64,000 bases of DNA from Candidatus Micrarchaeia archaeon (GCA_046331685.1 JAXLQI010000002.1:34630-98629); one strand, 5' to 3'; shown: positions 24,341-60,870, numbered from the stretch's first letter. The notes: a model not told the origin generated them from the sequence alone. A program made the numbers and translations.

Positions 24341-24343
24341 CAT

Positions 24344-25922: not shown

Positions 25923-26072
25923 AGAAAATTTCCTCCGGTTTGACTTCGGGTAAATTTTCTATCAACGCACCTGAACGACGATTCGTTCAAGGCGCAAAGG
26001 GAACGCAGTTCCCTTATGACTTCCTGAGATGAACTTAGGAATTATTGATAATGCGACTGAATAAAATAAAAG

Positions 26073-36274: not shown

Positions 36275-36289
36275 CGGTATTTTTTTTAA

Positions 36290-42731: not shown

Positions 42732-43454
42732 ATGGATAAAGCCCTAGAACGCAAACTTACGAGCCTGCGGAAGAACATCAGGAAACTCGACAGCGCCCTC
42801 GTCGCATTCTCCGGCGGAGTCGACAGCACCTTCCTCACCCGCATCTGCCGGGAAGAGCTCGGCGAGAAAGCGGTGGCCGTCACCACATTATCCTCATCCT
42901 ACCCCCGCTCAGAGCTCTCTCTCGCACGGAGGGTAGCCAAGATCGTCGGAGTGAAACACGTGGTCGTGGACCCGTCGAACGGATCATCAGGGTCCAGGGA
43001 CATGTGCCGGGGCTCAAACATATACAGCTGCCTCAAAAGCGTCGCCATGAGGATGAAAGTGAATAATGTCCTCGACGGCTCCCATATGGATGACGCATCA
43101 GAGAAAGGCAATAGCTTCCTCGCCGCGAAAAAGGCGGGCATAAAGAGCCCCCTCCTGGAATCCGACCTGACGAAAGCCGAGATCAGGCTGCTCGCCAAGG
43201 AGTTCGGCCTCCCCAACTGGGACAAGCCGGAATCCTCCTCATCCAGATCGAGGAACAAGCCGAGCAAGACCGAAGCCGCCAAGAACTTCATCAAAGGCTT
43301 CGGGAGCGGGGCGAGCCTGGAGGCGAGCGGAAGCAAGGCGGTCATCTCCGGGAGCAAGGCCGTGATCTCATCGCTCGCCAAGAACATCGAGTCTATCGAG
43401 AAGAAGCTCAAGTCGCTGGGATTCTCAGAAGTGATGCTCAAGCTGTCTACCTGA
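42732..43454 (+). CDS. PP-loop superfamily ATPase (LarE/TIGR00268-like)
   Basis: 'VAFSGGVDSTFL' PP-loop and a LarE-like 'LP.WDKP' region. C-terminal part is low-complexity and Ser/Lys-rich, so the gene may be damaged. Confidence 0.5.
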   Translation: MDKALERKLTSLRKNIRKLDSALVAFSGGVDSTFLTRICREELGEKAVAVTTLSSSYPRSELSLARRVAKIVGVKHVVVDPSNGSSGSRDMCRGSNIYSCLKSVAMRMKVNNVLDGSHMDDASEKGNSFLAAKKAGIKSPLLESDLTKAEIRLLAKEFGLPNWDKPESSSSRSRNKPSKTEAAKNFIKGFGSGASLEASGSKAVISGSKAVISSLAKNIESIEKKLKSLGFSEVMLKLST

Positions 43455-43475: not shown

Positions 43476-44051
43476 TCAGGCCACTTTCTTGAATGCGAGG
43501 ATCCCCTTCTCTGTCCTGAAGAACTCATATCCCTCGGACAGGTAGAGCTTCTCCAGCGCGCTTCCGGCCTCGGTGATATAATCGGCTATGTTCCCCTTAG
43601 GGATATCCTCATAGAGATAGCCGATCGTGTATCTGAGGCCTGAATCGACGGCTTCCTTCTCGCGCTCGGAGAGGAGGATCCTGCGGATGCCCCTGCCCTC
43701 GTAGGCGAGGAGGACGGCCGGGTCTTCCAGATACAGGGCGTTTGGCTCGCCGCTCATTATCCTTTTGGTATCAAGATCGACCTTGGCAGGCCAGGCGAGG
43801 CCCACCCCGACGAGCATCCGGTTGACGGTCGCTCCGAAGCTCTTGCCGTAAGCGACTATATTGCTGACCTCGACCTCGGTCACGTCGAAAGCGCATTTGC
43901 GCATCACTTTGACGCAGTTCTCGATGTCCTCAGGGTCGTTCGCGTCCAGCCTCTTGACCTCGACCTCTTCTTCATCGAGAAGATGGACGAACTTTTTTTT
44001 CGGGGCTTCCGCCTCCTGCTTCTTCTCGGTTTGCTTGAAAGACTCGACCAT
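43476..44051 (-). CDS. GNAT-like acetyltransferase fold protein
   Basis: 191 aa; 'LAYEGRGIRRILL' motif A-like; last gene of the long minus-strand operon. Confidence 0.45.
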   Translation of the reverse strand: MVESFKQTEKKQEAEAPKKKFVHLLDEEEVEVKRLDANDPEDIENCVKVMRKCAFDVTEVEVSNIVAYGKSFGATVNRMLVGVGLAWPAKVDLDTKRIMSGEPNALYLEDPAVLLAYEGRGIRRILLSEREKEAVDSGLRYTIGYLYEDIPKGNIADYITEAGSALEKLYLSEGYEFFRTEKGILAFKKVA

Positions 44052-44057
44052 ATCCCT

Positions 44058-44399
44058 TCACATGAACCGCGTATTGCATGCCGGGCACTGTGTCAGCATG
44101 GCTTCCATCTTGTACCCGCAGATAGGACATACATAAAAGGTTTTATTAGCCCTCTCTAATTCGGCCTCGAAGTTGTACCGGCATTTGGTGCAGCTTTTCA
44201 CGTCGAGCTCGTTCAGCGTCTGGCATTTCGGGCACTTCCTCCTGAACATGCTCTTGACGCGGATCCCGCACTTGGGGCAGCGCGCCATGCTCAGGTTTAT
44301 CGTCTCCCCGCAGTTCGGGCACTTCTGGACCTGCCCTTTGCGGTCCGACGAGGCACCGGGCCCGTGCATGAAGTTCTTCAGGACGTCTCCGATCCCCAT
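44058..44399 (-). CDS. Multi-zinc-ribbon protein
   Basis: 113 aa with six CxxC pairs ('CPNCG','CPKCG','CPKCQ','CTKCR','CPICG','CPACN'). Confidence 0.6.
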   Translation of the reverse strand: MGIGDVLKNFMHGPGASSDRKGQVQKCPNCGETINLSMARCPKCGIRVKSMFRRKCPKCQTLNELDVKSCTKCRYNFEAELERANKTFYVCPICGYKMEAMLTQCPACNTRFM

Positions 44400-44400
44400 G

Positions 44401-47400
44401 TCATCCGCTCAGCGTGCAGCTCACGTCGTAATCCTTCAGGGGTATCGGGACATTGCAGAAAGTCTGGGCCTTCTCAATGGACCGGATATCGGCATTGAGG
44501 CCGCAGTCGACCTCCTGGTCGCCGATCTTCGAGAAGGCGATCGGCTTGTTGACCTGGTTCGAGGTGGATTTCTTGACATAGCTGTACCTGCGGCCGCCCT
44601 GGTCCTCGAGGCAGCATTTGCTGGTCCGTGGGATCCCACCGATTATGTCGAGGTAGACGTCGGAGCTCAGGTCGGTCATGCTGCCGTTCCTGGCCTCGAC
44701 CGTGCCGTTCGCGTAAGAGAAGGTGCAGTCATAGGTCCCGGGAAGGTCCTTGCACAGCGGGCAGCGGCTTCCGGCCGGGTCGTCCACGACCGTGTTCTCC
44801 GGGCATCTGAAGCTCCCCTTGATATCAGCCTCGGAGAACCCTGCCGGGGGGACGCATTTGATCGCGTCGTCGCATTTGAGGGCATCGTCGTTGCATAGGC
44901 CCTGAGCCTTCTCGAGGCTGCTGCAGGGCACGCACTCGGATACGTTGACAGCGTTCGTGAGCTGGTAGACCGCGATGGGCGGGGAGGACGTCATCCTCTG
45001 CATCGCCTTCTCGAGGGCGCACATCTTCGAGTTGGAGGTCCCGATGCCGCCGTTCACATCCTCGAGGCCTATCGCAGGGCCTTTGATGGTGCTCGGGGGT
45101 ATGATGAGCTCGAACTGCCTCGCCGGCGAATAGATTATCCCGGTGAGCCCGGCCTTGATCAGCTGGTCCTGGTCGAGCACGATCGCATCGAACAGGGCTG
45201 TCTGCTTGTCGCGGGTGTTCCAGATCGAGTCAGCGCTGTCCAGGTTGAGGCCCACCACCATCGTGGGCTTGCCGTATTTCTGGAGGATCGCGAGCGAATA
45301 ACCATAGATCGAGTCGGCGATGTACTGGCTGTAGTTGGCGGTGAGATTGGCGGAAGGGTCGAGCGATGTCACGTACGCGCCGAATGCAGGCAGCTCGCCC
45401 GTGTGCGAGCTGATCGCATAGTCGTATGTGACCATGTCCACGGAGAATTTCGTGTTCAGGTTGGTGGTGAACACCCCTCCTGCCGTGTCGGAGAGGCTCT
45501 GGTTGCTCGCAGCGCCGGTGACGTGGAACGCGGTCAGGCATCCGAAGCACCTGCTGTGGATCAATGCGCTCCGGTCCCCTATCTCGGTGGCCTTGTCAGA
45601 CGCATCGCTCGCGTTCGCCACGCGGTCCACTATGACCACGGCCGCGCCCGTGTTCCCGACGAGCCTCTGGAAGTCATACTCATCGAGCTTCTCGTTCCAG
45701 TTCGAGGCGTCGCTCAGGTCGAGCACAGGCATGACGCCGGCTTTCATGTAGTTCCCGAACCTCTCCTTGAGGACGCTCGCCTCAGGGACGGTCCGCGGGC
45801 CGGGAGGCTTCGCTCCGTCCTCGACGCTGAAGTCGTTCGCGTCGGTGATGAGATTATTGGCGCACCGCAGCTCGTTCGATCTTCCAACGCAGATCTTCCT
45901 CTGGAGGGGGGTCAGGTCCACGGTCCCGCCGTTGTCCACATTGCCGATCCCAAGGGGCACGTAAGTGTCGTTCGTTGCGGTTATGGTCTGGTACGCCAGC
46001 GTGGATGTCGTGCAGGGTTCGCACCAGCCGTACGTCCTGATCTTCGGCATGCCCGACGCGGCATCGAGGGCGCATTTGCCGATCTTCTGGTTGTTGTTGT
46101 CATAGAACAGCACGATATACTTGCTGTAGAGGATGTCGTAAGTAGGCTTCACCCCTTCTGCCCAGAAGTAATAGTTCTTATCCTCGTCATCGTTGTGATG
46201 GTACGGGTTGACGTAATATCCTGAGTTGAGGCCGCGGAGCGCGCAGAGCGAAGCCTCGCTCGCCGAAGTGTATGTCTCGCTGAACCTGTTGATCTTCCTC
46301 TCCCCGATAGCGATCTCGTTCGCGAGGAGGAAGTTCGATGCCCCGCCTCCCATGTACGGCTGGACCGGGTGCGGGCGCTTATCCACGTTGATGACCCAGG
46401 GAAGGCCGGTGAAGAAGAAATCATAGAAATACGACCGTGCCTGGACGGGCGCATCATCGTAAAGCTTGCCTGCATCGGCTCCGCAGTCGTCTCCTGTCGA
46501 GATCGCCTTCATGCCGCTGAACCTGCTCCTGAAGTATCCTGTGAAAACGTCCTTGAGCGGGCCCCACTGCGTCGGGTCGTTGGGCACAGCGACGATATCA
46601 TAATCCACCCCTCCCCCCACCATCTCGCAGTTCTTCACGACAAGCAGGTTTTTCACGTCGCTCTGGGTGGCTAGCGCGTACCCTATGACCTTGCGTCCAT
46701 TATATGTCGCCTGCGGCTCCACGTTGCCGAAGAACAGCGCTCCTCCGGCCGGCGGGCCGTTCGACACTTCGGCGAAATTATTGTTCCAGCTGCCATCAGT
46801 GTAGTTATACCAGTAGAGATAGGTCGAGGCGGTGTTCGTTATGTCCCCGACATCGGTGGATTTCTTCGCCTGGGTGAAATACGAGCTGCTCATCACGTTC
46901 GGGCAGTTGACCTGCCAGCCGTCGTTGCCCCCGCCGAAGTAGTAGGCGCCCGAATATATGTAATTGACGAAGCTGTCCAGGTGGTTCGAATCGAATATGC
47001 CGCACAAACCGTCCCCTCCCTCGACCCAGGACTGCCCGTCGAAGTGCGTGGTCCTCGCCGATACCTTGGCGTATTTCCGGTTCGGGGCGGTGTTGGGGCC
47101 GGTCAGGGTGACGTTCACCGTGGGCGCGCAGATGATCTTCGTCGTCCTGCTTTCGTCGGTGTAGCTTTCGCAGTCGGTGACGACCTCCTGCGACTGGCCG
47201 CTCTCGTCCTGGGGCGTCAGCATCACCACCCTGTTGTATGTGGTCGTGCCGCATATCCCTGAGAAGCACTCCGTCGAAGCGACGTCGCATTCGAATGGCG
47301 CCCGCGTCGTGTTCTTCTTGACCGGGTTCAGCCCGTAGACCGTGTCGGCATGCGCGATCGACAGCCATTTCTTGTAGAAGCTGTCGTCGATCTTCTTGTT

Positions 47401-48336
47401 GACGCTGGATGGCATGAAGAACTTGTCATTCATGAAGTATCCGAACCCGAAACTGGACAGCGTCCCGTCCAGGCGCGCCCAGTGGGCGAACTTGTAATTG
47501 GCGCTGTCCTTGTTCACTATGGAATAATTGTATCCGATGCTCCAACCATCATGCGTGAATGTCCCGGACCTGCTGCCTAATCCGCTTTCGTCGAAACTGA
47601 GGGGCGAGGGCGGGGTGGAGCTGCCCTGGTCGAAGCAGTTGTTTGTGATCCCTGTTATCGGGTCGTACTGCGCCAGCGTCGAAGGGTTGAGGTAATTCAT
47701 GTACCGGTCCACGCGCAGCTCTCCCAGCTTGGGCGGGTTGACCGTGCAGAACCTGTCTGAGATGGGGAAGAGATACCTGTATTGCTCATATTCGTCGAAG
47801 GACCCGCCGACGCCCAGCCTGAACACGTTGATGGCCGATTTCGAGTTCTTCATTATCTTCTTCAGGCTCCCGTCCATGGGGAGGAAGCGGCACTGCGCTT
47901 TGTAGAACTGGATCGCCGTGGCATCCTGCGTGTCAGGAGGGATGTCTGCGCTGACCTTGTTATCGTCGCTCACGCTGAGCCCGAATCCTACGGCCGGCTT
48001 GAACTTGAAATCCCCGCACACCATGGTGAGGCAGTTCGGCGCCCTGCAGCTCAGGATGTCGTCCTCGGTGCATATGGGCACGAGATAAGGGCCGATGGTC
48101 GGGGAAAGCGTGACATTGCAGAAATTCCCGGTGGTATTGCATTTCTGGCCGTCGGATTCGAGGTTGGTCTTCGCTATCATGTCGGTGATCGTGTCGGAGC
48201 TGTCGTTATACAGGATGCACCCCGTGTGGTCCGTTGCATTGGCCTTGAGGCAGCAGCCGATCTTGGATGCGGGCTGGAGACAGCCGAAGGCCATCAGGGC
48301 CGCGAACAATACCAGTGCGAGGGTTCGTTTCTCCAT
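44401..48336 (-). CDS. Giant (1311 aa) secreted cysteine-rich protein with dense N-glycosylation sequons
   Basis: Signal peptide 'MEKRTLALVLFAALMAFGCL'; no internal TM; many Cys; NxS/T sequons throughout; start abuts the upstream paralog's stop (48337). Confidence 0.7.
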   Translation of the reverse strand: MEKRTLALVLFAALMAFGCLQPASKIGCCLKANATDHTGCILYNDSSDTITDMIAKTNLESDGQKCNTTGNFCNVTLSPTIGPYLVPICTEDDILSCRAPNCLTMVCGDFKFKPAVGFGLSVSDDNKVSADIPPDTQDATAIQFYKAQCRFLPMDGSLKKIMKNSKSAINVFRLGVGGSFDEYEQYRYLFPISDRFCTVNPPKLGELRVDRYMNYLNPSTLAQYDPITGITNNCFDQGSSTPPSPLSFDESGLGSRSGTFTHDGWSIGYNYSIVNKDSANYKFAHWARLDGTLSSFGFGYFMNDKFFMPSSVNKKIDDSFYKKWLSIAHADTVYGLNPVKKNTTRAPFECDVASTECFSGICGTTTYNRVVMLTPQDESGQSQEVVTDCESYTDESRTTKIICAPTVNVTLTGPNTAPNRKYAKVSARTTHFDGQSWVEGGDGLCGIFDSNHLDSFVNYIYSGAYYFGGGNDGWQVNCPNVMSSSYFTQAKKSTDVGDITNTASTYLYWYNYTDGSWNNNFAEVSNGPPAGGALFFGNVEPQATYNGRKVIGYALATQSDVKNLLVVKNCEMVGGGVDYDIVAVPNDPTQWGPLKDVFTGYFRSRFSGMKAISTGDDCGADAGKLYDDAPVQARSYFYDFFFTGLPWVINVDKRPHPVQPYMGGGASNFLLANEIAIGERKINRFSETYTSASEASLCALRGLNSGYYVNPYHHNDDEDKNYYFWAEGVKPTYDILYSKYIVLFYDNNNQKIGKCALDAASGMPKIRTYGWCEPCTTSTLAYQTITATNDTYVPLGIGNVDNGGTVDLTPLQRKICVGRSNELRCANNLITDANDFSVEDGAKPPGPRTVPEASVLKERFGNYMKAGVMPVLDLSDASNWNEKLDEYDFQRLVGNTGAAVVIVDRVANASDASDKATEIGDRSALIHSRCFGCLTAFHVTGAASNQSLSDTAGGVFTTNLNTKFSVDMVTYDYAISSHTGELPAFGAYVTSLDPSANLTANYSQYIADSIYGYSLAILQKYGKPTMVVGLNLDSADSIWNTRDKQTALFDAIVLDQDQLIKAGLTGIIYSPARQFELIIPPSTIKGPAIGLEDVNGGIGTSNSKMCALEKAMQRMTSSPPIAVYQLTNAVNVSECVPCSSLEKAQGLCNDDALKCDDAIKCVPPAGFSEADIKGSFRCPENTVVDDPAGSRCPLCKDLPGTYDCTFSYANGTVEARNGSMTDLSSDVYLDIIGGIPRTSKCCLEDQGGRRYSYVKKSTSNQVNKPIAFSKIGDQEVDCGLNADIRSIEKAQTFCNVPIPLKDYDVSCTLSG

Positions 48337-49380
48337 TCAGACCACTTTGCTGACCATTCTCATAATCTCGTATGAATCCGCCCCGAGGACCGTGATTATA
48401 TAACGGACGAAGACCATCGTGAGGAAGAACGCGACGAGCGGGTGGAGCATGAGGGTTATGTACGACTTGGAAAGCTCGTCGCGGATGTTCTGGTTGCCGA
48501 GGAGGCCCGTCGTCCCGAGGCCCCCTGCCTGGAGCGTCTGAAGGACCGAGACCGTGTTCGACATCGTCGCGTAGCAGTAGGGCTGCTGGATCGGCGGCTG
48601 GGCCTGCTCGGTTACAGGGGGGGCAGGCACGAAGCCAGGGTCGAGGAGGACGAAGAAAATAGGGAATATGAAATACATCCCGATCCCGAACGCGATGAAC
48701 AGGGCTCCCACGCTCCTGCTGAAGTATATGCTCCGGAGGAATATCCCGAACGGGATGAAAAGGTTAAGCATGTTCGCTTTCAGGTAGGCGATGATCGAAG
48801 ACTGGGCGTTGAGGCCGATGAGCAGGGTGGTCGCGAGATTGTTCGTGATCCTGGCGGTCTCCGTCGCCCGGTAGAGCGAGCCGATCCAGTCCCCTTTGAA
48901 AACCGTGAGCCCGAGGAGGCTTCCCTGCGTGTTCAGGATATTGAATTCCGATGCCGTCCCGATCCCTGTAGTGACATCCCCCTGTATCTTGGCGACTGCG
49001 ACCGCCTTCTCCTGGAGCCTGCAGCGTATAGCGTCGAAAGCCTCATCCATGGTGGACTGGTTGGTGGTCCCGATATGGACGGATTTTCCGAAACATGATA
49101 TATCCCCGGTGATGAAGCTGTGCGCTATGTCCATAGCGCTGTTGACCATGATGAGCAGGGATCCGACCATCACCGCGGTGGAGAGGGCCTGGAGTATCTC
49201 TGACATGGCGTAGTTCTCGAACTCCTTGATGGAAAGAACCCTTGCAGCCAGGAGGAAAACGATGTGGAGGAGGAGGGATACCATCAATGCCAGCGCAGAG
49301 AGAGGAGCCCAGTTCGCGACCCACCCTGCGCCTCTGAACTGGAGGTCCGATAATAGGGAAAGTATCGGCAGGGCATCCAT
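48337..49380 (-). CDS. Polytopic membrane protein, paralog 1 of 6 (unassigned family)
   Basis: 347 aa. Shares with paralogs 2-6: an N-terminal TM, a '(F/W)xxE' amphipathic segment ('KEFENYAMSEILQAL'), a core 'FLRSIYFSRSVGALFIAFGIGMYFIFP', and a C-terminal 'LGADSYEIMRMVSKVV'. Confidence 0.7.
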   Translation of the reverse strand: MDALPILSLLSDLQFRGAGWVANWAPLSALALMVSLLLHIVFLLAARVLSIKEFENYAMSEILQALSTAVMVGSLLIMVNSAMDIAHSFITGDISCFGKSVHIGTTNQSTMDEAFDAIRCRLQEKAVAVAKIQGDVTTGIGTASEFNILNTQGSLLGLTVFKGDWIGSLYRATETARITNNLATTLLIGLNAQSSIIAYLKANMLNLFIPFGIFLRSIYFSRSVGALFIAFGIGMYFIFPIFFVLLDPGFVPAPPVTEQAQPPIQQPYCYATMSNTVSVLQTLQAGGLGTTGLLGNQNIRDELSKSYITLMLHPLVAFFLTMVFVRYIITVLGADSYEIMRMVSKVV

Positions 49381-49382
49381 AT

Positions 49383-50414
49383 TTACACCATCTGGACTAT
49401 CCTACTTAAATCTATCTCCTCTCCGTAGAGACGGGCCACGTACGCTATGGTCCCGATCGTCCCGAGCAGCGCCGCGGTGGGCATGAGGACGGCTGCCACG
49501 AACGCGTAAGCACCGAACTGCATGGCGCCGATCGGGTTCTGCCCGCTCGGGAAATAGGAATCCACGACCGCGCCTGCCCCCATCACAGCTGCCTCCACGC
49601 TCTGGCCGGCCCCATTCTTCTCGTCGAAGACACCTTCGTCGTAGAACGCGCTGAAGTCCTGCGGCTGGTAGTTCGGCTTGTCCACAAGGACAGGTTCCAT
49701 CAGGTAGAAGATCGAGAGCAGCAATGGATAGACGATCAGGAAAGAGAGCGCCACGGCTATCATGAGCCCGCCGAACCCTCTCAGGTACGGCATCGACCGC
49801 ATGAACACCCCGAGAGGAAGGAACAGGAGGACGAACCCCTTATAGACGAACTGCAGTATGAACAGGAAATTCAGCGCCGTGAGCGTGGACATTATCGAGG
49901 AATTGAAGAAGAAATTCAGGGCCGCCTGCTCGGCGCCATACCCCCCGAGCGGCTGGAGGCTCGTCCCGGAGTACCCGAACAGGCAACCGATCCCTCCGAA
50001 TTCGCACTCGAAGACGCTGAGGGCGGCGAGGATATTGTAAGCCTCGAGGTGGTATCGGATCACGGCTGTGGCGCGCAGGGAGTAATACCCGGCATCGACA
50101 AGGTAGTGCTGGGCTGCCGTGTATATGTCGATAGAGTCGGCCGTGAGGCCGAAGAGCGGGGCTACGGTGTCCATCTTTATCGAGCAGAACCCGTTCATGA
50201 CCCCGATCAGCAGGACCACCGTGAATAGGGAGAGCGTGACCTGGACGGCCTCGGTCTTGGCCCAGAGGCTGAGCTTGGGGTTCGATAGCACCTGGCTCAG
50301 CATGTAGCTGACCGCTATTATTGACATCGTGGTCGCTACAGACAGGGCGGAGAGCGGGATGATCACCCCGTTCATCAGGTCGTTGAATCCGGAAATTCCG
50401 CATGCGTCGACCAT
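49383..50414 (-). CDS. Polytopic membrane protein, paralog 2 of 6
   Basis: 343 aa; 'NPKLSLWAKTEAVQV', 'FMRSMPYLRGFGGLMIAVALSFLIVYP', C-terminal 'LYGEEIDLSRIVQMV'. Confidence 0.7.
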   Translation of the reverse strand: MVDACGISGFNDLMNGVIIPLSALSVATTMSIIAVSYMLSQVLSNPKLSLWAKTEAVQVTLSLFTVVLLIGVMNGFCSIKMDTVAPLFGLTADSIDIYTAAQHYLVDAGYYSLRATAVIRYHLEAYNILAALSVFECEFGGIGCLFGYSGTSLQPLGGYGAEQAALNFFFNSSIMSTLTALNFLFILQFVYKGFVLLFLPLGVFMRSMPYLRGFGGLMIAVALSFLIVYPLLLSIFYLMEPVLVDKPNYQPQDFSAFYDEGVFDEKNGAGQSVEAAVMGAGAVVDSYFPSGQNPIGAMQFGAYAFVAAVLMPTAALLGTIGTIAYVARLYGEEIDLSRIVQMV

Positions 50415-51410
50415 TCAGACAAACCTCGCGATGCTGCTGACATCCACTTCAGCCCCTGCCATGGACGTGAGAGCGCGGACGCCGGCCCCCATCAGGAGCA
50501 GGGCAAGGACCGGGCCGAAAGTGCCCCGCACGAGGACGCTGAAGACGACCCTGCGGAGGTCGGCCCTCAAACTGTCGAAGATGTTGATGGCTTTCCCGGC
50601 TTCTCCCCCTCCGCCGCTGAAAAGGACCTGCGACGGGTCGCAGGAATCGATCGAGGATGTGAGCCCGCCGGAATATCCGCTCGATGCTGATGCGTCGGCG
50701 AGGAAGGTATCGACCAGCATCTGGTTGAATATGATCCCTGCTGGTATCATTATATGCATGGATACGCCGAGAGCTATGAAGAACCCGCCGGCGCCCCTCG
50801 TGAGCTTGAACGTCCTCAGGATGATCCCGACCGGCAGGAGCAGCTGGAGCGCATAATTCTTGGACAAATCTATGAGCCGCTTCATGCTGCTAAGCTCGCC
50901 TATCGAGAACGCCACGATCCCGCCGGCCATCGACAGCGGCGTGCTGAGCATCGCATACCCGCCGCAGGCGCTGACTGTGTATCCGATCCCAACTATATTG
51001 CAGGATTCGGCCTTCGAGCCTTCGATCGAGACCTTGGTGTCGAACTCGGCAACCTTGTTGTACACCTGCTTCATCCCGTCAGTGGGGTTATCGAGGTTCT
51101 GGGCGATCAAGGTGTTCGCGGCATCCTGCATATTCGCCGCCCCCTGGACGGCCCCGAGCGTGCTCGAGAATCCATCGAGGATGTTGTTGCTCCCGACGAG
51201 GACCACCATGAGCAGCATCGTCGCGATAAGCTGGTAGAACTCCTCCTTGGCCATGATCTGGAGCTCATTCACGCCGAATCCGAAACCGATCGCATAGACG
51301 AATCCAAGGATCGTGGCGGACACCGCTATGGCGAGGGCGGCGGTGCCCTCCCAGCCTCCGGCGGCGAAAGCAAGCGGGACCAGGGCCATGAGCAGGATCA
51401 TCTTCCTCAT
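50415..51410 (-). CDS. Polytopic membrane protein, paralog 3 of 6
   Basis: 331 aa; 'NELQIMAKEEFYQLI', 'ILRTFKLTRGAGGFFIALGVSMHIMIP', C-terminal 'MAGAEVDVSSIARFV'. Confidence 0.7.
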   Translation of the reverse strand: MRKMILLMALVPLAFAAGGWEGTAALAIAVSATILGFVYAIGFGFGVNELQIMAKEEFYQLIATMLLMVVLVGSNNILDGFSSTLGAVQGAANMQDAANTLIAQNLDNPTDGMKQVYNKVAEFDTKVSIEGSKAESCNIVGIGYTVSACGGYAMLSTPLSMAGGIVAFSIGELSSMKRLIDLSKNYALQLLLPVGIILRTFKLTRGAGGFFIALGVSMHIMIPAGIIFNQMLVDTFLADASASSGYSGGLTSSIDSCDPSQVLFSGGGGEAGKAINIFDSLRADLRRVVFSVLVRGTFGPVLALLLMGAGVRALTSMAGAEVDVSSIARFV

Positions 51411-53509
51411 CAGAACACCTTGGACAGTCCCGGGATCTCTATGTCCCCTCCCAGTATCGCCGAAAGGCCCCTTATGAACACCAGCGTCGCCACGATATTG
51501 AACAATGGCAGGACATACGCCGGCAGCATCATCTTCGAGACGTTCTGGATCTCAGAGGTGCCTGCGAGGCCCTCGGCTCCTATGGACGAGAATTTGCCCG
51601 CGCTTTTGGTCGGCATCGCATCCCCGGCCCTGCACAGCTCCACGCAGTTGGGCTGGATCGGCGGCTCATACACCTGCGATTCCTCAGTGAAGAGGCACTG
51701 CTCGCAGGCATTGCGCGGGACCGGTACCCTGTCCTCGGGCTTGCAGGCGCTGTTGATATCGCACGCGCCTGTAATGTAGCTGCTCGGCATCGTCTCGCCG
51801 TATGTGATTATCCTTTTCTCGGCATCGCACGACCCGCACGCCGTCGGCGAGACCTCGGCGATGTAAGTGGAATTCACCTTGCAGCCTACCGGGCAGCTCT
51901 TGCATGAATTTATCAGCTGGTTGTTGCTGGAGTTGATGCAGTTGCTCGGCAGCTTGGTTATGTCGTTCGTGGTGACCCTGCAGACCTCGGGGCAGGCGTC
52001 GCAGAGGAAATTGCACCGTCCTGTCTCCGGGACGATGTATGCGCATGAATCCAGCGCATTCAGCGAAGGCGTGCATTCCTGGGCCAGCTGGCATCTGATG
52101 TACTGCTCCAGCGAGGCATCCTTGATCGGGTTCGGGGACCAGTTGACATCCTGCGCCAAGACACCAGTATAGTTGATCCTCGTGTAGACCCTGCACTCCG
52201 GCCTCGATGCCAGGCAGCTCCCCGTATTGCAGTTACCTTTGAGCGGGGGGACGACCTTGCATTCCTTGGGGCACATCGAGAGGACAGGAGCCGTCTCGTT
52301 GTCCGGAGGAGGTGGAGGCGAAGCGAGCCTCCTCACCCAGCATTTGTCCGGGAGCGCGGCGCAATTCTGCGGGACGAGTCCCGTCTGGTTGTAGCATGTA
52401 GTGAGCGTATTGGGGAAGGGCAATTCGCGGCAGACAAGGGGGCAGGCATCGGGGCTGACGGTCATGCACGACACGACGTTCTTCCCGCTGTAGTTCCCGC
52501 TCGTGGGGCTGCCTGAAGCCGCGCTGCCGTCCAGGATCTTGGATGCCAGGTCAGCCTGCCCGGGGAACACGTCGAATACCTCTTTGGGCGAGCCCAGCTT
52601 CTTGCCGTCAGCCGATCCGTCATCTATGTAAGCGAGCGCATGCGGCACCTTGCATTCGTCAGGGCACTGGTTCGCCCCGGCGTTCTCATTGGCCTTGTCG
52701 CCGGTGAGGGTGGTGTCCAGGGTGAGCCAGTCGAACACGAACATGCCGGGGAAGAAGAACATTATGCCGCACCCTACCGCGATGAGCAGCCCTCCGAGCT
52801 TGCGGGTGAAGAAGAACGTCCTCGCGATAACCCCCATGGCGAGTATCCAGGGGCCGATCCCGAACGAGATGTGCTGGATGAAGAACTTCTGGGCTTCGAG
52901 CGAGGCGAGGAGGTTGCTGTAATATTCGAAGACCATAGTGTACCTGTCCTGGTCGAGGATGAAATGGCCTAGGAGGCTGAACGAAGCGCCTGCCTGGAGG
53001 CATAGGATAGATGTGCAATAGAGCCCGAACCTGCGGCCGGCCCACCCGGAAGCAGTGACGGCGTCGATGGAGACCTGCCTGGCGTCGTCCTTCGCCGAAT
53101 TGATGTATGAATCCAGATATGCCACAGAGACATTCCCTATGCAGCTCTGGCCGCCGACGCATGAGAGATTGAGCTGGCTCTCCTGGACGATAGCCTGGGA
53201 CATGGCATCGAGGAAAGCGATCGTAACGAGAAGGCCAATGATGATCGTCACGTTCGCGAAGACCTGGACGAGCTCGTTGCTGGCCCATGCCTTTATCTCA
53301 GGCATCTCCATGCCGATACCGACGGCGTAGGCCATCCCGATCAGGATTATCGAGATCATGATCGAGATCATGGAGAGCACCCTCCAGTCCTTGATGAATT
53401 CCGGGAGCCCGGCGCCCGAGGTCTGGGTGGTGAAGGTGTTCTCTGACTGCGTCGGCGCGAAGGAGACCGCGACCAGAGCCAGGAAGAGCGCAAGGTAAAG
53501 GAGCCTCAT
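51410..53509 (-). CDS. Polytopic membrane protein, paralog 4 of 6, with a ~380-aa cysteine-rich extracytoplasmic insertion
   Basis: 699 aa; 'PEIKAWASNELVQVF', 'IARTFFFTRKLGGLLIAVGCGIMFFFP', C-terminal 'LGGDIEIPGLSKVF'. Insertion has repeated CPxxC(K/R)V modules ('CPDECKVPH','CPKECKVVP','CPEVCRVTT','CPVGCKV'). Confidence 0.7.
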   Translation of the reverse strand: MRLLYLALFLALVAVSFAPTQSENTFTTQTSGAGLPEFIKDWRVLSMISIMISIILIGMAYAVGIGMEMPEIKAWASNELVQVFANVTIIIGLLVTIAFLDAMSQAIVQESQLNLSCVGGQSCIGNVSVAYLDSYINSAKDDARQVSIDAVTASGWAGRRFGLYCTSILCLQAGASFSLLGHFILDQDRYTMVFEYYSNLLASLEAQKFFIQHISFGIGPWILAMGVIARTFFFTRKLGGLLIAVGCGIMFFFPGMFVFDWLTLDTTLTGDKANENAGANQCPDECKVPHALAYIDDGSADGKKLGSPKEVFDVFPGQADLASKILDGSAASGSPTSGNYSGKNVVSCMTVSPDACPLVCRELPFPNTLTTCYNQTGLVPQNCAALPDKCWVRRLASPPPPPDNETAPVLSMCPKECKVVPPLKGNCNTGSCLASRPECRVYTRINYTGVLAQDVNWSPNPIKDASLEQYIRCQLAQECTPSLNALDSCAYIVPETGRCNFLCDACPEVCRVTTNDITKLPSNCINSSNNQLINSCKSCPVGCKVNSTYIAEVSPTACGSCDAEKRIITYGETMPSSYITGACDINSACKPEDRVPVPRNACEQCLFTEESQVYEPPIQPNCVELCRAGDAMPTKSAGKFSSIGAEGLAGTSEIQNVSKMMLPAYVLPLFNIVATLVFIRGLSAILGGDIEIPGLSKVF

Positions 53510-54507
53510 CCGATCACCCTCAGAGCCTTATGTATCGAACCGAAGAACGTTATCAGGAGCGCGAGCGTGAGGTTCGGCAGGAAGAACGCCTGCGGGATCA
53601 GCCTGGCGACGTTCCAGAGGCTGTCGGGGTTGCTGCATGTCGCGGCCCCGCTCGAAGCCGGGTTCTGGATGCTCGGGCATCCGTTATTGTCGATGGCGTT
53701 GTCGCAGGCGGCCTTAGAAAACGAATTGCAGTCGCCTGCCACCACGTCGTACATCGCACCGTTGAATGCATAGAGCAGCGGAAGGAGCACGTATAGTCCA
53801 ATCACAAGAGCAATAAATATGTTCCCCATGTGCCTTGTCGGGGGGAAGAAGCGGAGCAGGACGGCGATGGGGAGCACCCAGCGGACGACGTTCTCGTTCA
53901 CGAACTGGAGGAAGAACTTCTGCATGCTCAGGCTCATGAGGGCCGGCACGAGGAACGAGCTGAATATCATATTATACTGGCTGGATATCACCTTGCGGAA
54001 CGCTCCGGTCGTGGCCGTGAACGCGTTGAAGAGAGGGATCTGGAGACTGACGGCGAAAGTGGAATCCATCATCTGGTCGATATACTTCTGCACATACCTC
54101 TCCGACATCGACCGGGCATCCTCCTGCGCGTTCTTGATATAGCATTCCGCGATGCCGTTGACATTCAGGCCGGGGCTGTAGCAGGTCGTCGTGCCGAGCC
54201 TGGAGAAAGTCTGGTCGAAGAAGAAGCCGGTGAGCTGGCAGGAGAAGACGAGTATCCCGCTGAATCCCACAAGGAGCATGATCGAGAACATGAGGTGGTA
54301 GAACTCGTCTTTGGCGAACACTATGAAGCTGGGGTTGTGGGTCGCGTTCCCGGCAGCGTAAGCCACAGCGAGGACGAGTATCAGGAATGCTATCACGATG
54401 CCTATGAGGCTTCCCTGCTCGCTCACTATGACCGATGTGGCGTTGAGCAGGCATGATGCGGCGCTCGAAAGGCCGAGGACAAGCAGGAGCACCAGAGCGG
54501 ATCTCAT
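53506..54507 (-). CDS. Polytopic membrane protein, paralog 5 of 6
   Basis: Trimmed to ATG 54507 ('MRSALVLLLVLGL...'); the 176-aa upstream extension on the track is R/P/H-rich and overlaps paralog 6. 'SFIVFAKDEFYHLMF', 'LLRFFPPTRHMGNIFIALVIGLYVLLP'. Confidence 0.65.
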   Translation of the reverse strand: MRSALVLLLVLGLSSAASCLLNATSVIVSEQGSLIGIVIAFLILVLAVAYAAGNATHNPSFIVFAKDEFYHLMFSIMLLVGFSGILVFSCQLTGFFFDQTFSRLGTTTCYSPGLNVNGIAECYIKNAQEDARSMSERYVQKYIDQMMDSTFAVSLQIPLFNAFTATTGAFRKVISSQYNMIFSSFLVPALMSLSMQKFFLQFVNENVVRWVLPIAVLLRFFPPTRHMGNIFIALVIGLYVLLPLLYAFNGAMYDVVAGDCNSFSKAACDNAIDNNGCPSIQNPASSGAATCSNPDSLWNVARLIPQAFFLPNLTLALLITFFGSIHKALRVIG

Positions 54508-55679
54508 ATCAACCTCTGTATCCCGGCCATATACCATTCGCCTCCGAGGGCTGCAGAAAGGCTCCTGATGCTCGACATCGTGATTATCGCTATCAGCACT
54601 ATGTCCATGTAGATGACCATGACGTAATTGCTTACATCGCGCATGAACGGCTGGAGGTGGTCGAACACAGTCCCGCCGTACTTGCCCGGGTTGATGAACG
54701 CTTCCCATGCGATGAGCGTCACTGCGTTCACTATCTGGAAGATCAGGCTGATGATCGGGTAGACCACATGCCAGAGCAGGTCGAAGCAGACAGGGAAGGC
54801 CCCGGGGATCCATGCGATCGGTAGGCAGAGTATGAGGGCGAAAAGAGGGTCGGTGAGCGAGAAGAGGATCCTGATGGGCGCCGCTTCGCATGCCCAGCCG
54901 ATGGCGTATATCGGGAACGGGTTGGAATCGAGCGAATCCGGGTCCGACAGAGCCGGCGCGGTGAGCCCAATCTGCCCGTTCACCATATCCGCGATTATGA
55001 CTGAAAGCGGGAGGAACAGCACGACCCCCACGCATATGGCTATCAGGGTGTTGCCCACCCTCCTCGTGAAGGGGATGAGCCTCGCGCAGAAAGCCATGGG
55101 CAAGAGTATCTGCGGTATGACGACGCCGAAGAAGCTGATGAGGAGGCGTATCGCCTCAGCGAGGAAGATGGCGTTGGAAAGCCCCTGCGTGGCGAGGCTC
55201 AGCGGGACCAGGTAGATGGATGCGCCGCTCAGGGGGGCTGTCTGGTAGCTGAGGGACACCCACCAGATCGGGATGTTGGTGCCTGAGGAGTATGACGCGG
55301 CGACCCTGATGTAGGACGCGGCGGTAATCACATCGTGATATGCGCCGGTCAGGCCGTCGCCCCACGAATCCACCACGGACTGGGCTTTCGTGATATAGTC
55401 ATTATGGCCTGTGAGGACCACTGCGAGGCCGTTGCTCCCGACTAGTATCCCGATGACTATGGCTATTATGATAAGGCCGGCGAGGAACTCGCGTATCTCG
55501 GTCTTGGCCCATGCCTCGAGCTGCGGGTTCGAGATCGAATGGGCGAGCATGTTCATCGCAGCGAGGAAAATAACGACTATGATCGCTATCGCCGGAACGG
55601 CGAACTGGAGGTTCACAGCGGCCGAGAAAACAGCTGGCAGCATTAATGCAAATAAGAATGCGAGTCGCCACAGCTGCAT
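54504..55679 (-). CDS. Polytopic membrane protein, paralog 6 of 6 (first gene of the operon)
   Basis: 391 aa; 'NPQLEAWAKTEIREFL', 'CARLIPFTRRVGNTLIAICVGVVLFLP', C-terminal 'LGGEWYMAGIQRLI'; 4-nt overlap with paralog 5. Confidence 0.7.
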   Translation of the reverse strand: MQLWRLAFLFALMLPAVFSAAVNLQFAVPAIAIIVVIFLAAMNMLAHSISNPQLEAWAKTEIREFLAGLIIIAIVIGILVGSNGLAVVLTGHNDYITKAQSVVDSWGDGLTGAYHDVITAASYIRVAASYSSGTNIPIWWVSLSYQTAPLSGASIYLVPLSLATQGLSNAIFLAEAIRLLISFFGVVIPQILLPMAFCARLIPFTRRVGNTLIAICVGVVLFLPLSVIIADMVNGQIGLTAPALSDPDSLDSNPFPIYAIGWACEAAPIRILFSLTDPLFALILCLPIAWIPGAFPVCFDLLWHVVYPIISLIFQIVNAVTLIAWEAFINPGKYGGTVFDHLQPFMRDVSNYVMVIYMDIVLIAIITMSSIRSLSAALGGEWYMAGIQRLI

Positions 55680-55773
55680 GGCTAGATTTCTTGCTCATAG
55701 ATTTAAATGTTTGCTGGAGCCTCCGAATGGCGCGGACAATTATCTTTATAAAGTTGCCAAATGTTATTATGCC

Positions 55774-58446
55774 ATGAGGCTGTTGCTCCTTGCCCTGGTC
55801 CTTCTGACTCTCTTCCCCGCGATCCATGCTGACAGTTCGACCTGCGCGACCTGCTCCGAGCTGATCAATGCATCCACGACCGGCATCTTCGTGGAGGTCC
55901 GCGATGCCGACCCCACGAACCAGTACATCAAGATCACAGGATACTACAACAACGTCACAGCTTCCCCTTCCAGGCAGCCCCTGAAGGACTCTATCATAGT
56001 CATCCAGCTCACGAACTCCACCACCCTCAACGTCCTGCAGAAGACATACACGGACGGCAACGGCTCGGCCAAATTCAAGTACAACAACTGGAACCACACC
56101 TGCCTCAACTTCAAGGTGATGTACTGCCCCTACTGCAATCCCCCGAGCGCGAATTGCACCGGATTCAAGCAGTGCCTGGATTTCGCCCAGATAAGCACCA
56201 ATGCGACGACGGCAGACCAGATAACCGATGCTGCGGATGCCGTCCAGCCCGGGACGCTGAACCCGGACAGATACCTGCCGCAGATAGGGACCGGCTCCTG
56301 GTGCCCGCCTCCGCCTCCACTCAGCGCGACGCCGGCGATCTGCCTCCCGCTCATACTCATATTCTCGCTCCTATCCGGAGCTCTCTACTTGACCGGCAGG
56401 AACCCCTTCGCGGCATTCAATATCGGCGGCCAGAGGGTGGGCCAGCACATAAAATACCAGGCAAGAGGGAGAGGGTTCTCCTTCAGCATAACCCAGGCTA
56501 TCATCGCCGGTTTCAGCGTCGGCCAGGCCGCCGCGACGATCAAGAAGGAAGGCATGAAAGGCTTCGTCAAGAAGGAAGTCGATTCGGTGAAAGCCAGAGG
56601 CTTCTATAACGTCTCAGGAACTATACGAGGCATCAAAGGAGGCCTCAAGGGCCTCTCCGACGCCCGGGCCCATGCCCGGGCTGGCAGGGGCACGGCTTCC
56701 GGAGCGAGAACCAGCGGGGGGCCGACACAGGTTTCGACTGCCCAGGGTGTGCAATCCGCCTCAGCCGGCGGAGGCCAGGTCCGGGGCGCGGACCTGATGG
56801 GTTCGGGAAGGGGCGGATGGGCAATACTAGACAATCCCCTCACGCGCATACTCACATTCGTGATAATGAGCTCCACAATCGGCCGCGCCTTCGATGCCAT
56901 GTATTCTGCCGCGACATTCAACGCAGATGCCGGACGCGGAAGGAGCGTCTTCGAAGCGATATTCGCTGACTCTCCGACAAGGCAGGCTTCAGAAGGCGTA
57001 GCGACAATCCGTGCGATGCGCGGCGCGGACGGCGGCTGGTTGGTCCGTTTCGGCCCTGGCAATGCCGAGACTGCCCAGGTCCTAGGCGAACGGGTGAATT
57101 CCGATGGATCCAGGACATACATCCTCGCAGCCCCTCCGGGGACCGGCCCTGTGAAGGATAACCAGATCCAGGTGACTATAGCCCAGAACGGCACCATCTC
57201 TTCGGTCAGTTTCACCCTGACTTTGCCAAGTCCGACAGCCCAATTCCCCAACGGAGAAGCCAGAGTCGTGATCTCTCCTGGCGCAAGGCCCGGCGATCCG
57301 ATGAATATCCAGGTCGCCGTGCCCAACCCGGATTCCCGGCCAGGTCAGCCACCAACGATCTTGGTTCCATATGAAAACCAGTTCATGCAGACCTTCGGCA
57401 CCGGAGCGACAGCCCACCAGGAACCTATGACCGGGGCCGACATGCTGAGCAAGATCCCGACTTTCCTGTCTCCGGGCAGCGACGGCCGAGACTTCCAGGC
57501 AGGCTATAATGCCACGATGCTGGTGGTATCGGATGCACAGAGGCAGATACAGGAAGCGATGGCTTTCGGCGGGCAATCTATCAGGGATCGCGTGATCTCT
57601 GACATGGCGAGCAGGCCGGAGATGAGGCCTGTGGTCCGAGAAGCACGCTATGATGTGGCCGTGGACGCATTATCGACCGTGCTCGGCATCGATCCGGCGT
57701 CGCTGCGTGCAGGCGGCACAGACCACCCGGAGCTCACGAGGGGCCTTTCGCCCGGCAGCAGCGAGGCCGGCGAAGTCGGAAGATACGAAGTAGCGGTGAC
57801 GAAATTCTCGAGCGCTGATTCGGCGGGCACTCTGTCATTCTTTGATGACCGGAGCGGCACCACGAGGACCATGACCTATTCGCAGATAGGGACGGCTGGA
57901 GGAGTGACTTATATGGCCGAAAGAGGGAATCCACCACTCTCAGATGCCGCACGTCCATTCGCGACAGAGGTTCTCCCCTCCGTCATCGGTCATATGGGCG
58001 GGGCCGAGCTCGCCGGCATGACGCCGGAAAGGCTTCAGGCAGCGATCGCAAGCGATCTGCCGCGTCTCAACGCAGAACGGGCGACACATGGGCTACCCCC
58101 GATAGCGATCGCAGGATCAGGCACTCCGCCCACCGGTGCTATAGTTATATCCGCGGGAACGATGACCGAAATGACACGCGTCTTCGCTCCCCAGATCTCG
58201 CAGGCCACTACTGAATTCCGCTCCAATATGGCCAGCAGCGGACTGCCTTCCGGGTTCATCGACCGCGTGATGACCTCGGACACTTCCACCCTGGGCACAC
58301 TGAGCGCAGCAGGGCGGATGATGTCCGATGACCACACGGCCGATCTCCTCTCATCCAGACCTACCCTGATTTCGGATTACCGGATCCCAGAGTCAGTATC
58401 CCAGAACCTGCGAGAGTTCGCTCTCATGCAAAGGGCTTCCGGATGA
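55774..58446 (+). CDS. Large (890 aa) signal-peptide protein: Cys-rich ectodomain, PPPPP linker, one TM, long basic Gly/Ala/Ser/Thr-rich domain
   Basis: Trimmed to ATG 55774 ('MRLLLLALVLLTLFPAIHADSSTCATC...'). Ectodomain has Cys clusters ('CLNFKVMYCPYCNPPSANCTGFKQC') and NxT sequons; TM 'ICLPLILIFSLLSGALYLTG'. Divergent from the six-paralog operon. Confidence 0.6.
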   Translation: MRLLLLALVLLTLFPAIHADSSTCATCSELINASTTGIFVEVRDADPTNQYIKITGYYNNVTASPSRQPLKDSIIVIQLTNSTTLNVLQKTYTDGNGSAKFKYNNWNHTCLNFKVMYCPYCNPPSANCTGFKQCLDFAQISTNATTADQITDAADAVQPGTLNPDRYLPQIGTGSWCPPPPPLSATPAICLPLILIFSLLSGALYLTGRNPFAAFNIGGQRVGQHIKYQARGRGFSFSITQAIIAGFSVGQAAATIKKEGMKGFVKKEVDSVKARGFYNVSGTIRGIKGGLKGLSDARAHARAGRGTASGARTSGGPTQVSTAQGVQSASAGGGQVRGADLMGSGRGGWAILDNPLTRILTFVIMSSTIGRAFDAMYSAATFNADAGRGRSVFEAIFADSPTRQASEGVATIRAMRGADGGWLVRFGPGNAETAQVLGERVNSDGSRTYILAAPPGTGPVKDNQIQVTIAQNGTISSVSFTLTLPSPTAQFPNGEARVVISPGARPGDPMNIQVAVPNPDSRPGQPPTILVPYENQFMQTFGTGATAHQEPMTGADMLSKIPTFLSPGSDGRDFQAGYNATMLVVSDAQRQIQEAMAFGGQSIRDRVISDMASRPEMRPVVREARYDVAVDALSTVLGIDPASLRAGGTDHPELTRGLSPGSSEAGEVGRYEVAVTKFSSADSAGTLSFFDDRSGTTRTMTYSQIGTAGGVTYMAERGNPPLSDAARPFATEVLPSVIGHMGGAELAGMTPERLQAAIASDLPRLNAERATHGLPPIAIAGSGTPPTGAIVISAGTMTEMTRVFAPQISQATTEFRSNMASSGLPSGFIDRVMTSDTSTLGTLSAAGRMMSDDHTADLLSSRPTLISDYRIPESVSQNLREFALMQRASG

Positions 58447-60712: not shown

Positions 60713-60870
60713 GCTGACGTCGCATAACCTGGTAGTGCGCCGGTCTTGAATCCCGCCTTTTAGTAAAAGGCGGGCCCAAAACTGGGTTGTTTGCGAACCC
60801 CATCGGGGTTTGCCAACTAACAAAAAAACCGGTCCCTTCGGGATCGCAGGTTCAAATCCTGCCGTCAGCG
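60713..60870 (+). tRNA. tRNA-Ser(UGA), class II, with a 76-nt intron in the anticodon loop
   Basis: Acceptor GCTGACG/CGTCAGC; discriminator G. D-arm GCAT-AACCTGGTA-GTGC. Anticodon stem CCGGT/ACCGG; loop CTTGAAA, anticodon TGA (60747-60749). 13-nt variable hairpin (TCCC-TTC-GGGA); T-arm GCAGG-TTCAAAT-CCTGC. Intron 60751-60826. Confidence 0.65.

Follow-up and report, generated by a model that had tools for sequence, protein, structure and literature searches.

A cysteine-rich, predicted extracellular domain on one of six paralogous membrane proteins in a conserved Micrarchaeota gene cluster

A 64,000-nucleotide stretch of DNA from a Candidatus Micrarchaeia archaeon (GCA_046331685.1 JAXLQI010000002.1:34630-98629; hereafter the window, with positions counted from its first letter) contains a cluster of about nine to ten genes that we find in fixed order in every Micrarchaeota locus recovered here. 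The cluster includes six paralogous membrane proteins, A to F, one of which, subunit C, carries a large cysteine-rich domain between its last two transmembrane (TM) helices. Given its fixed position in this conserved cluster, the Cys-rich protein probably marks a cell-surface machine. Our reading is that C is a subunit of a previously undescribed, Micrarchaeota-specific envelope cluster and provides a hetero-oligomeric complex with a disulfide-braced extracellular head that has variable loops and acts as a spacer, a dock or an adhesin; we put the probability of this reading as a whole at about 0.55. Micrarchaeota belong to the DPANN archaea and have tiny genomes; those in culture live attached to other archaea. 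To our knowledge, the molecular basis of envelope building and host engagement in DPANN archaea is largely unknown.

Subunit C is 100% identical to U0R44_03180 at NCBI, a 'hypothetical protein' of Candidatus Micrarchaeia archaeon. An initial annotation, made from the sequence alone, had described a protein here with a core shared by its paralogs, a final TM helix and a series of short Cys-containing modules, and all of these are present in a minus-strand open reading frame (ORF). It had numbered the gene as paralog 4, which is correct by window coordinate but not by order of transcription, since the genes lie on the minus strand and C is the third of A-B-C-D-E-F. Hydropathy agrees on the layout with an AlphaFold2 model built from our own ortholog alignment, which has a mean predicted local distance difference test score (pLDDT) of 80.5 and values mostly of 80–93 over aa 280–625. 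A signal-like N-terminal helix is followed by TM helices at approximately aa 43–66 and 82–104, and a first outside region (aa 105–215) forms a long helical hairpin that prolongs the TM helices and contains two small Cys pairs and two sequons (NxS/T). The chain returns through a TM helix to R230, a short basic loop (R-T-F-F-F-T-R-K-L-G-G) and a TM helix at approximately aa 239–262 that reaches outward to residue 279. The Cys-rich head comes next, and then a return helix with the last TM segment (aa 652–685; approximately 660–685 by hydropathy) and a tail of 14 residues. The conserved core IARTFFFTRKLGGLLIAVGCG corresponds to aa 228–248. Three of its residues, R230, R236 and G239, do not vary among the six paralogs and reach at least 90% conservation across 143 family representatives. 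G687 is also invariant across all paralogs, and the pattern of the tail is common to A–F. We infer strongly, from the positive-inside rule and the distribution of sequons and Cys, that the head lies outside the cell: the N-terminal helix is signal-like, hydrophobic helices flank the insert, R230, R236 and K237 fall in the predicted cytoplasmic short loop, and the sequons and all of the conserved Cys are confined to the two predicted outside regions.

The insert spans about 390 residues (approximately aa 266–655) and holds 32 of the 37 Cys of the protein, and eight of its 11 sequons are within it or border it. The Cys-rich insert and its interspersed sequons are thus as first described, although the earlier count of more than 40 Cys was too high. 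The modules are at aa 282 (CPDECKV), 413 (CPKECKV, in CPKECKVVPPLKGNCNTGSC), 506 (CPEVCRV), 536 (CKSCPVGCKV) and 602 (CEQC). CPxxC[KR] occurs five times, compared with a mean of 0.019 when the ectodomain was shuffled 20,000 times with its composition preserved, and CxxxC[KR] six times, compared with 0.21; neither observed count was reached in any shuffle. Each CPxxC[KR]V coincides in the model with a recurring 'HHH-EE' pattern assigned by DSSP, a short helical turn and then a strand. Among 850 CxxxC instances in family ectodomains, which are about 9% Cys, Pro follows the first Cys in 58%, Arg or Lys follows the second in 60% and a further Cys is present at position -3 in 32%, giving the consensus (C-x2-)C-P-[ED]-x-C-[RK]-[VI]-x-P-P. 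These motifs do not constitute a tandem array of domains, a possibility that we rejected: Cys autocorrelation has short-range peaks only (at 3, 4 and 7) with no long-range periodicity, and no internal repeats came up when a 960-aa ectodomain was compared with itself by BLAST. The ectodomain is therefore better described as a short motif recurring on a lattice of Cys.

This lattice is strongly conserved. We found 55 homologs of C, mostly full-length (approximately 680–740 aa) and from independent NCBI, JGI, ENA and Logan assemblies, and in the 45 that were aligned as full-length orthologs (35–65% identity) all 32 Cys of the insert, as well as C117 and C123, are invariant or at least 93% conserved. 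An exact-sequence look-up of homolog P0001 returned no record. Elsewhere in the head the pairwise identity is 0.38, with about 15 indel hot spots between the fixed Cys, so that outside its Cys the head changes at about twice the rate of the best-conserved membrane segments (0.76 for TM3-loop-TM4, aa 216–265, and 0.76 for TM5 plus tail). Three blocks of the ectodomain, CRELPYP, CKVVPPLKSNC and NxCExCLFTEESY, are nonetheless strongly conserved throughout the phylum. The Cys complement varies in discrete steps. A core of 20 Cys is kept by C orthologs across Micrarchaeota and is present in at least 95% of the 135 unique orthologs of up to 900 aa on which these counts are based. A 12-Cys cassette is present in 87 of the 135 and absent as a single block in about 48 (Jaccard index of co-loss within the cassette, 0.92–1.0); P0049 and P0051 lack it. 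C of the window, with core and cassette, belongs to the 32-Cys class. In the neighboring loop of the first outside region, C165 and C170 are likewise gained or lost together (Jaccard 0.98 over the same 135).

The insert is also old. Five sister paralogs, with approximately 19–25% identity to C, share its TM core and have in the paralog alignment only a short segment where C has the insert, in agreement with the initial annotation, and the CPxxC[KR] module is exclusive to C. A profile of the six paralog cores, searched against representatives clustered at 50%, matched 2,956 of them at E≤1e-3, of which 382 had E≤1e-30. The best 150 family members are bimodal in length; forms of about 320–430 aa have few Cys, and in every member of 479–1683 aa the conserved loop is followed by a Cys-rich insert containing 12–121 Cys and up to 16 CxxxC[KR]. 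The suggestion of a modular acquisition is borne out insofar as a cassette is gained or lost as a block and relatives reach about 16 CxxxC[KR] and 121 Cys, but the acquisition is not recent: none of the orthologs found across Micrarchaeota lacks the insert, the gene's place in the operon never changes, and the insert therefore predates the radiation of the phylum. The earlier expectation that orthologs might carry different insertions at this loop was not borne out, as the same kind of insert is always there and only its size differs. A further homolog search with the paralog profile A1, meant to widen the taxonomy, found only C orthologs again (candidates were selected by a word-based method). 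At five deep-branching loci (L063, L067, L069, L070 and L071; C of 1126–1405 aa with 84–107 Cys) paralogs A, D or E are also expanded in Cys; these inserts have no CPxxC modules and are located ahead of the cytoplasmic-loop motif, either at the N-terminus or within the first outside region.

The genomic context of C is similarly constant. Scanning of the GTDB species genomes gave 169 matching stretches. Genes were placed by ORF calling and best-hit assignment, and 76 loci serve as the base of the counts given here. The 74 retained loci are all titled Micrarchaeota, Micrarchaeia, Bilamarchaeaceae or 'ainarchaeum', or have only generic titles ('archaeon', 'uncultured archaeon'). The gene order A-B-C-D-E-F-G, where G is a large secreted protein, is the same in essentially every locus (about 70 species), with C always third and G directly after F in 63 of the 76. 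Sizes are approximately 400 aa for A, 330 for B, 330 for D, 350 for E and 345 for F; C ranges from 600 to 1405 aa and G from 1077 to 1927 aa, and orthologs of B are 323–345 aa. Each of the positions A–F constitutes its own orthologous group, and the six-fold duplication therefore predates the radiation of the phylum. All of the operon junctions in the window overlap or abut, suggesting coupled translation and a fixed stoichiometry. Membership of A–G in one complex is suggested by the identical order in about 70 species, the separate orthologous groups, the overlapping or abutting junctions and the presence in G of a signal peptide without an anchor; the case that A–F form a hetero-oligomeric assembly is a moderate one. 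The strict order in which a small genome maintains six ancient paralogs and a secreted protein of 1300 aa points to a surface structure that is both important and stoichiometric. Some Micrarchaeota genomes have two complete copies of the A–G operon (L005 and L020, L010 and L043, L042 and L062), and in one of these pairs the two copies share a contig, with about 17 kb between them.

Protein G has no CPxxC modules. Its sequence gave no Pfam match, no informative Pfam family among diverse orthologs and no meaningful sequence or profile match in the PDB. With its AlphaFold2 model (aa 112–1311; pLDDT 79.4, predicted TM-score 0.80) Foldseek returned 156 PDB matches at E≤1e-3, the top ones being glycoside hydrolases (GH) of families GH2, GH53, GH10 and GH51 with E down to 2e-6. 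The barrel and the beta-sandwiches that precede it match clan GH-A with a probability of 1.00 and a TM-score of up to 0.49 on the target, and the fold is that of a (beta/alpha)8 barrel, although sequence identity to the clan GH-A enzymes is only about 10%. Enzymes of the clan have an acid/base Glu after strand 4 (N-E-P) and a nucleophile Glu after strand 7, whereas G has no conserved Glu at either position, and none with at least 85% conservation in model residues 755–1020. Strand 4 ends with …VTYDY and strand 6 with …IIYSPAR (strands as assigned by DSSP only), and the conserved polar residues are D762, N768, W769, D777, R811, D856, Y862, K912, Q945, Y958 and R962 in model numbering. From the model, the barrel may be non-catalytic or non-canonical, either a pseudo-glycosidase or a glycan binder. 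The published Micrarchaeota S-layer protein SLP_Mh has an S_layer_N domain (PF05123) and almost no sulfur-containing residues (10.1101/2021.04.28.441871). We considered and rejected a role for G as an S-layer protein, as it has no PF05123 match and contains 45 Cys; C, with 37 Cys, likewise has no PF05123 match.

The ectodomain of C does not correspond to a known domain. A Pfam scan of C at E≤0.1 gave no families, and Pfam and NCBIfam searches with A–F, G and up890 (a single-pass protein linked to the cluster) gave no informative one; weak sub-threshold matches to WCOR413, TMEM238 and Band_7_C were dismissed. The zinc-ribbon protein encoded after G is the only cluster component with a family assignment. 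The best PDB hit in sequence and profile searches (A1, A2 and G) was a corrinoid adenosyltransferase over 40 residues (E=0.12), which is not meaningful, and Foldseek with the C model gave no fold match (best E of 1.3 against PDB and 0.39 against BFVD). EGF, anaphylatoxin and keratin-associated-like folds, raised in the initial annotation, were found by neither Pfam nor Foldseek.

Several systems are instructive as analogies. Furin-like and growth-factor-receptor domains (EGFR II/IV, insulin-receptor CR; PF00757, PF14843) are also extracellular and composed of many small modules, with local C-x2-C-x3-C spacing and often a basic residue next, as in EGFR 'CKKCEGPCRKV'. They form rigid, N-glycosylated, disulfide-bonded rods that act as spacers and docking surfaces, and the likeness is one of analogy only. 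C differs in the near-fixed Pro after the first Cys and in the placement of its domain, which interrupts a polytopic protein between two TM helices instead of forming the N-terminus of a single-pass receptor. No hidden Markov model (HMM) of furin-like, EGF-type or TNFR-type repeats matched C at E≤0.1 or seven module-rich relatives at E≤1, and no Cys-rich receptor is among the Foldseek PDB matches of C, a weak negative given that small disulfide modules are hard for Foldseek. The EC2 region of tetraspanins resembles C in that TM helices are prolonged as a stalk and a disulfide-stabilized variable head between the last two TM helices works in membrane assemblies. Tetraspanins have four TM helices, 4–8 Cys and a CCG motif, in contrast to the five TM helices plus signal-like helix and 32 Cys of the archaeal C, which has no adjacent Cys pair and no Pfam Tetraspanin (PF00335) match; the resemblance is not one of homology. 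The variant-specific surface proteins (VSPs) of Giardia and the CXXC-rich antigens of protists (PF03302) are membrane-anchored and about 10% Cys, with many CxxC, fixed Cys and variable loops, and they are protease resistant. Unlike them, C is encoded by one gene, always at the same place in the operon, and is not part of a large variant family, its relatives' dominant spacing is CxxxC (850) rather than CxxC (449), and it ends in …GGDIEIPGLSKVF (…GLSKVF) and not in a CRGKA-type conserved tail. No PF03302 match was found in C or the seven module-rich relatives. Disulfide-rich ectodomains on membrane scaffolds are thus a kind already known, but the domain of C belongs to no known family and the operon is confined to Micrarchaeota; we found no description of either the ectodomain or the operon in the searchable literature.

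We propose the following arrangement. The cluster encodes six membrane paralogs that diverged anciently, the giant secreted protein G, a single-pass protein whose cytoplasmic region is long, and some small cytoplasmic proteins. Each of A–F has a cleavable or anchoring N-terminal helix, a helical TM core that extends outward as a hairpin stalk, a strongly conserved cytoplasmic R-x-F-F-F-T-R-x-L-G-G loop and a conserved tail. In C alone, a large head, predicted to be extracellular, separates the last two TM helices. That head is envisaged as a fixed lattice of Cys, in which (C-x2-)C-P-x2-C-[KR]-hydrophobic turn-plus-strand motifs alternate with variable, indel-prone loops and the Cys are joined in disulfides, making a rigid, protease-resistant projection. 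Its size would be tuned by even-numbered Cys cassettes, from the 20-Cys core through the additional 12 here to as many as about 120 in other lineages. The role of C would then most likely be structural and adhesive, as the asymmetric stalk or docking platform, adjustable in length, of a 1:1:1:1:1:1 hetero-oligomeric assembly. Its head might position the anchorless G, contact the S-layer or the surface of a partner cell, or do both. Sequence features, conservation, gene order, cassette behavior and the novelty of the fold are established directly by the data; the docking or adhesive function is the part to which the data point only weakly.

Several observations weigh against this arrangement. 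An even number of Cys is present in only 51 of the 76 long family members (with crude insert boundaries), and the number of sequons varies from 0 to 16 per C ortholog. Many Micrarchaeota come from anoxic groundwater or sediment, as judged from record titles and general knowledge, and no disulfide-forming enzyme or thiol oxidase was identified in the 64-kb window. C length correlates only weakly with that of G (Spearman 0.36, p=0.008, without phylogenetic correction), and the conserved cluster contains no ATPase, transporter or glycosyltransferase.

The Cys of the insert could alternatively bind metal, as Fe-S clusters, zinc or the soft metals Cu, Cd or Hg, for electron transfer, metal sensing or sequestration, and metal binding had been among the possibilities raised at the outset. 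The C-x2-C-P-x2-C arrangement packs three Cys into eight residues and is superficially like Fe-S or zinc sites, with the Cys at -3 in 32% of the 850 motifs; the insert is about 9% Cys, the 20, 32 and 12 Cys of core, full insert and cassette are multiples of four, and anoxic source habitats (again from record titles) disfavor spontaneous disulfides. We nonetheless consider this improbable and infer, with moderate confidence, that the Cys form disulfides. Disulfides are favored because the 36 conserved Cys are even in number, C165 and C170 are lost strictly as a pair and form an isolated two-Cys unit, the cassette has 12 Cys and sequons are interspersed; they are favored also because His is only 0.7% of the family ectodomains and a single CxxCH is found among the 449 CxxC motifs of 76 ectodomains, with none in C of the window, a pattern quite different from the repeated CxxCH of multihaem c-type cytochromes. 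No Fer4, zinc-ribbon, metallothionein or cytochrome HMM matched seven relatives of C with 70–120 Cys, even at E≤1, C itself has no Pfam match to 4Fe-4S ferredoxins or zinc ribbons, and the same Pfam library readily detects the neighboring zinc-ribbon protein. Many relatives have 22, 26, 30 or 34 Cys in the insert, none of them a multiple of four. AlphaFold also folds the ectodomain confidently without cofactors, which is weak evidence.

A reading that overlaps with our own is that the ectodomain is a host- or partner-recognition adhesin under diversifying selection, much like variant surface proteins, in which the Cys lattice would do no more than support hypervariable binding loops and the operon would encode the attachment apparatus of episymbionts. 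The loops between fixed Cys change fast (0.38 identity) and have indel hot spots, Cys number ranges from 12 to 121 between lineages, some genomes have two operon copies, and the carbohydrate-active-enzyme fold of G, lacking canonical catalytic residues, would suit the binding of glycans. As this reading would expect, Micrarchaeota in culture are attached to host cells (PMC11329633, PMC8784108). However, C is single copy in each operon with no multigene variant family, and the phylum-wide conservation of CRELPYP, CKVVPPLKSNC and NxCExCLFTEESY fits a conserved partner better than variable hosts; we regard diversifying recognition as plausible, though not the likeliest reading. Far more doubtful is the view of A–F as a diverged secretion component (VirB6/TrbL of type IV secretion systems, or archaeal Ced/Ted), in which the Cys domain would be a lineage-specific decoration of a conjugation-like channel. 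Rickettsiales have tandem arrays of enlarged VirB6 paralogs, and these resemble A–F as several polytopic paralogs in a row, some of them enlarged by hydrophilic domains; a TrbL-annotated protein also appears at rank 9 of the BFVD matches. That match is non-significant and amounts to noise (E=2.3, TM-score 0.10/0.15, root-mean-square deviation 21.8 Å), there is no Pfam or NCBIfam TrbL/VirB6 (PF04610) match and no PDB similarity in fold or sequence although type IV secretion structures are in the PDB, and neither VirB4, HerA or coupling ATPases nor other type IV secretion genes are in the conserved cluster (a HerA 13 kb away matches in only one of the 76 loci). Finally, the absence of the insert from five paralogs was the only reason for suspecting an assembly or annotation artefact or lineage-specific junk (gene fusion or low-complexity expansion), and we found nothing else in its favor. 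Orthologs in independent NCBI, JGI, ENA and Logan assemblies, invariant Cys, a confident model and a constant operon position in about 70 species refute it. The initial annotation had named two outcomes that would overturn its view, an insert missing from all orthologs and failing to fold, or a match to a domain already described, and neither was observed.

Returning to C as the braced head of an envelope complex, a more ambitious form of the proposal is that A–F, G, up890, the zinc-ribbon protein and a 191-aa protein (dn191) are a new class of archaeal envelope machine: a pseudo-hexameric ring with C as a mast carrying a glycan-recognizing G and with the zinc-ribbon protein linked on the cytoplasmic side, functioning as a host-engagement apparatus, and with the CPxxC[KR] lattice as a new disulfide-rich fold family. 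We offer this as speculation that is more likely wrong than right. The lattice, which extends from 12 to about 120 Cys, is nevertheless a candidate for such a fold family and raises the question of how disulfides are formed outside archaeal cells in anoxic habitats. The cluster is a concrete target for cryo-electron tomography, proteomics and heterologous expression in cultivated Micrarchaeota (A_DKE, ARM-1).

Table 1. Positions in the window of the A–G cluster, its linked genes and the segments of subunit C.
Feature	Coordinates	Strand	Description
dn191, cytoplasmic protein	43476..44051	-	191 aa; after zinc-ribbon gene; no Pfam match; in 35/76 loci, mostly at same position
Triple zinc-ribbon protein	44058..44399	-	113 aa, 12 Cys, cytoplasmic; begins 2 nt past G stop; Pfam DZR 9.9e-10, Zn_Ribbon_1 4.9e-9
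Protein G	44401..48336	-	1311 aa with 45 Cys and 16 sequons; has a signal peptide but lacks a membrane anchor; modeled as a clan GH-A-like (beta/alpha)8 barrel plus beta-sandwich domains
Subunit F	48337..49380	-	347 aa
Subunit E	49383..50414	-	343 aa
Subunit D	50415..51410	-	331 aa; 1-nt overlap with C stop
Subunit C	51410..53509	-	699 aa; signal-peptide-like N-terminus, 5 TM helices, two predicted extracellular regions, Cys-rich ectodomain between TM4 and TM5 (from ORF, hydropathy, Cys positions and sequons)
Last TM helix and conserved cytoplasmic tail of C	51413..51544	-	…LGGDIEIPGLSKVF; pairwise identity 0.76
Cys-rich ectodomain of C (~aa 266–655)	51545..52714	-	32 Cys, five CPxxC[KR], 8 sequons; no PDB, BFVD fold or Pfam match
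Optional 12-Cys cassette of C (aa 499–589)	51743..52015	-	CxxCPxxC[KR]V modules: two complete, one degenerate
Cytoplasmic loop motif of C, between TM3 and TM4	52787..52828	-	I-A-R-T-F-F-F-T-R-K-L-G-G-L; hallmark of the whole A–F scaffold family
Subunit B	53506..54507	-	333 aa; true start MRSALVLLL; 4-nt overlap each with A stop and C start
Subunit A	54504..55679	-	391 aa; first operon gene; paralog of C without Cys insert
Divergent intergenic region	55680..55773	.	94 nt; two TATA-like boxes
up890	55774..58446	+	signal peptide, ~170-aa ectodomain with Cys and sequons, one TM helix (~aa 181–208), ~680-aa G/A/S/T-rich cytoplasmic region; divergent

The genes that flank the operon differ in how closely they follow it. 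The zinc-ribbon protein has a match in 37 loci, with 58–87% identity in most and 46–55% in a few, and is encoded 0–50 nt after G in 30 of them; its conservation greatly exceeds that of the membrane subunits, and it probably belongs to the A–G system as a cytoplasmic component. up890 is present in 46 of the 76 loci, where it is either upstream of A and divergent from it or immediately follows G, and scans of it and of its diverse orthologs gave no Pfam match. In the spacer between A and up890, a TATA-like TTTAAAT (55701–55707) is about 25 nt ahead of the A start and another box, CTTTATAAAG (55744–55753), about 25 nt ahead of the up890 start. This spacing is typical of archaea, and the two boxes are putative promoters; the distance of about 25 nt suggests that A and up890 have leaderless transcripts. 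A membrane-associated protease with only a Lon_C domain (40985–42679, minus strand; no ATPase domain was detected) and a PP-loop ATPase (42732–43454, plus strand) follow the operon in approximately 26–29 of the 76 loci. A HerA-type ATPase (DUF87 and HAS barrel; 36311–37816, plus strand) is beside an M23 peptidase (35165–36427, minus strand) 7–13 kb from the operon. The ATPase is probably unrelated and was rejected as a component of the system, as it has a match in only one of the 76 loci and is not syntenic.

Cys-rich composition is not restricted to C, and the other signal-peptide proteins of the window have 3.4–5.4% Cys, compared with about 1% in cytoplasmic proteins, which suggests, at the level of composition, that extracellular disulfides may be general in the source organism and agrees with placing the head of C outside the cell. 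Two further genes encode secreted-looking proteins, one of 316 aa with 17 Cys and a sub-threshold CarboxypepD_reg match (4886–5836, plus strand) and one of 386 aa with 16 Cys and no Pfam match (60945–62105, minus strand).

Other features of the window include an island of low GC content (0.45–0.48, compared with about 0.59) at 20000–26000, where a phage-integrase-family gene (24344–25561, minus strand) is beside an intron-containing tRNA; the island resembles a mobile element or provirus that has integrated at a tRNA. This tRNA (193 nt; 25730–25922, minus strand) and another of 158 nt (60713–60870, plus strand) were identified with Rfam and missed by ARAGORN in bacterial mode, and both probably contain introns. 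A signal recognition particle (SRP) RNA is located at 6006–6261 (minus strand) and scores best with the bacterial large SRP model.

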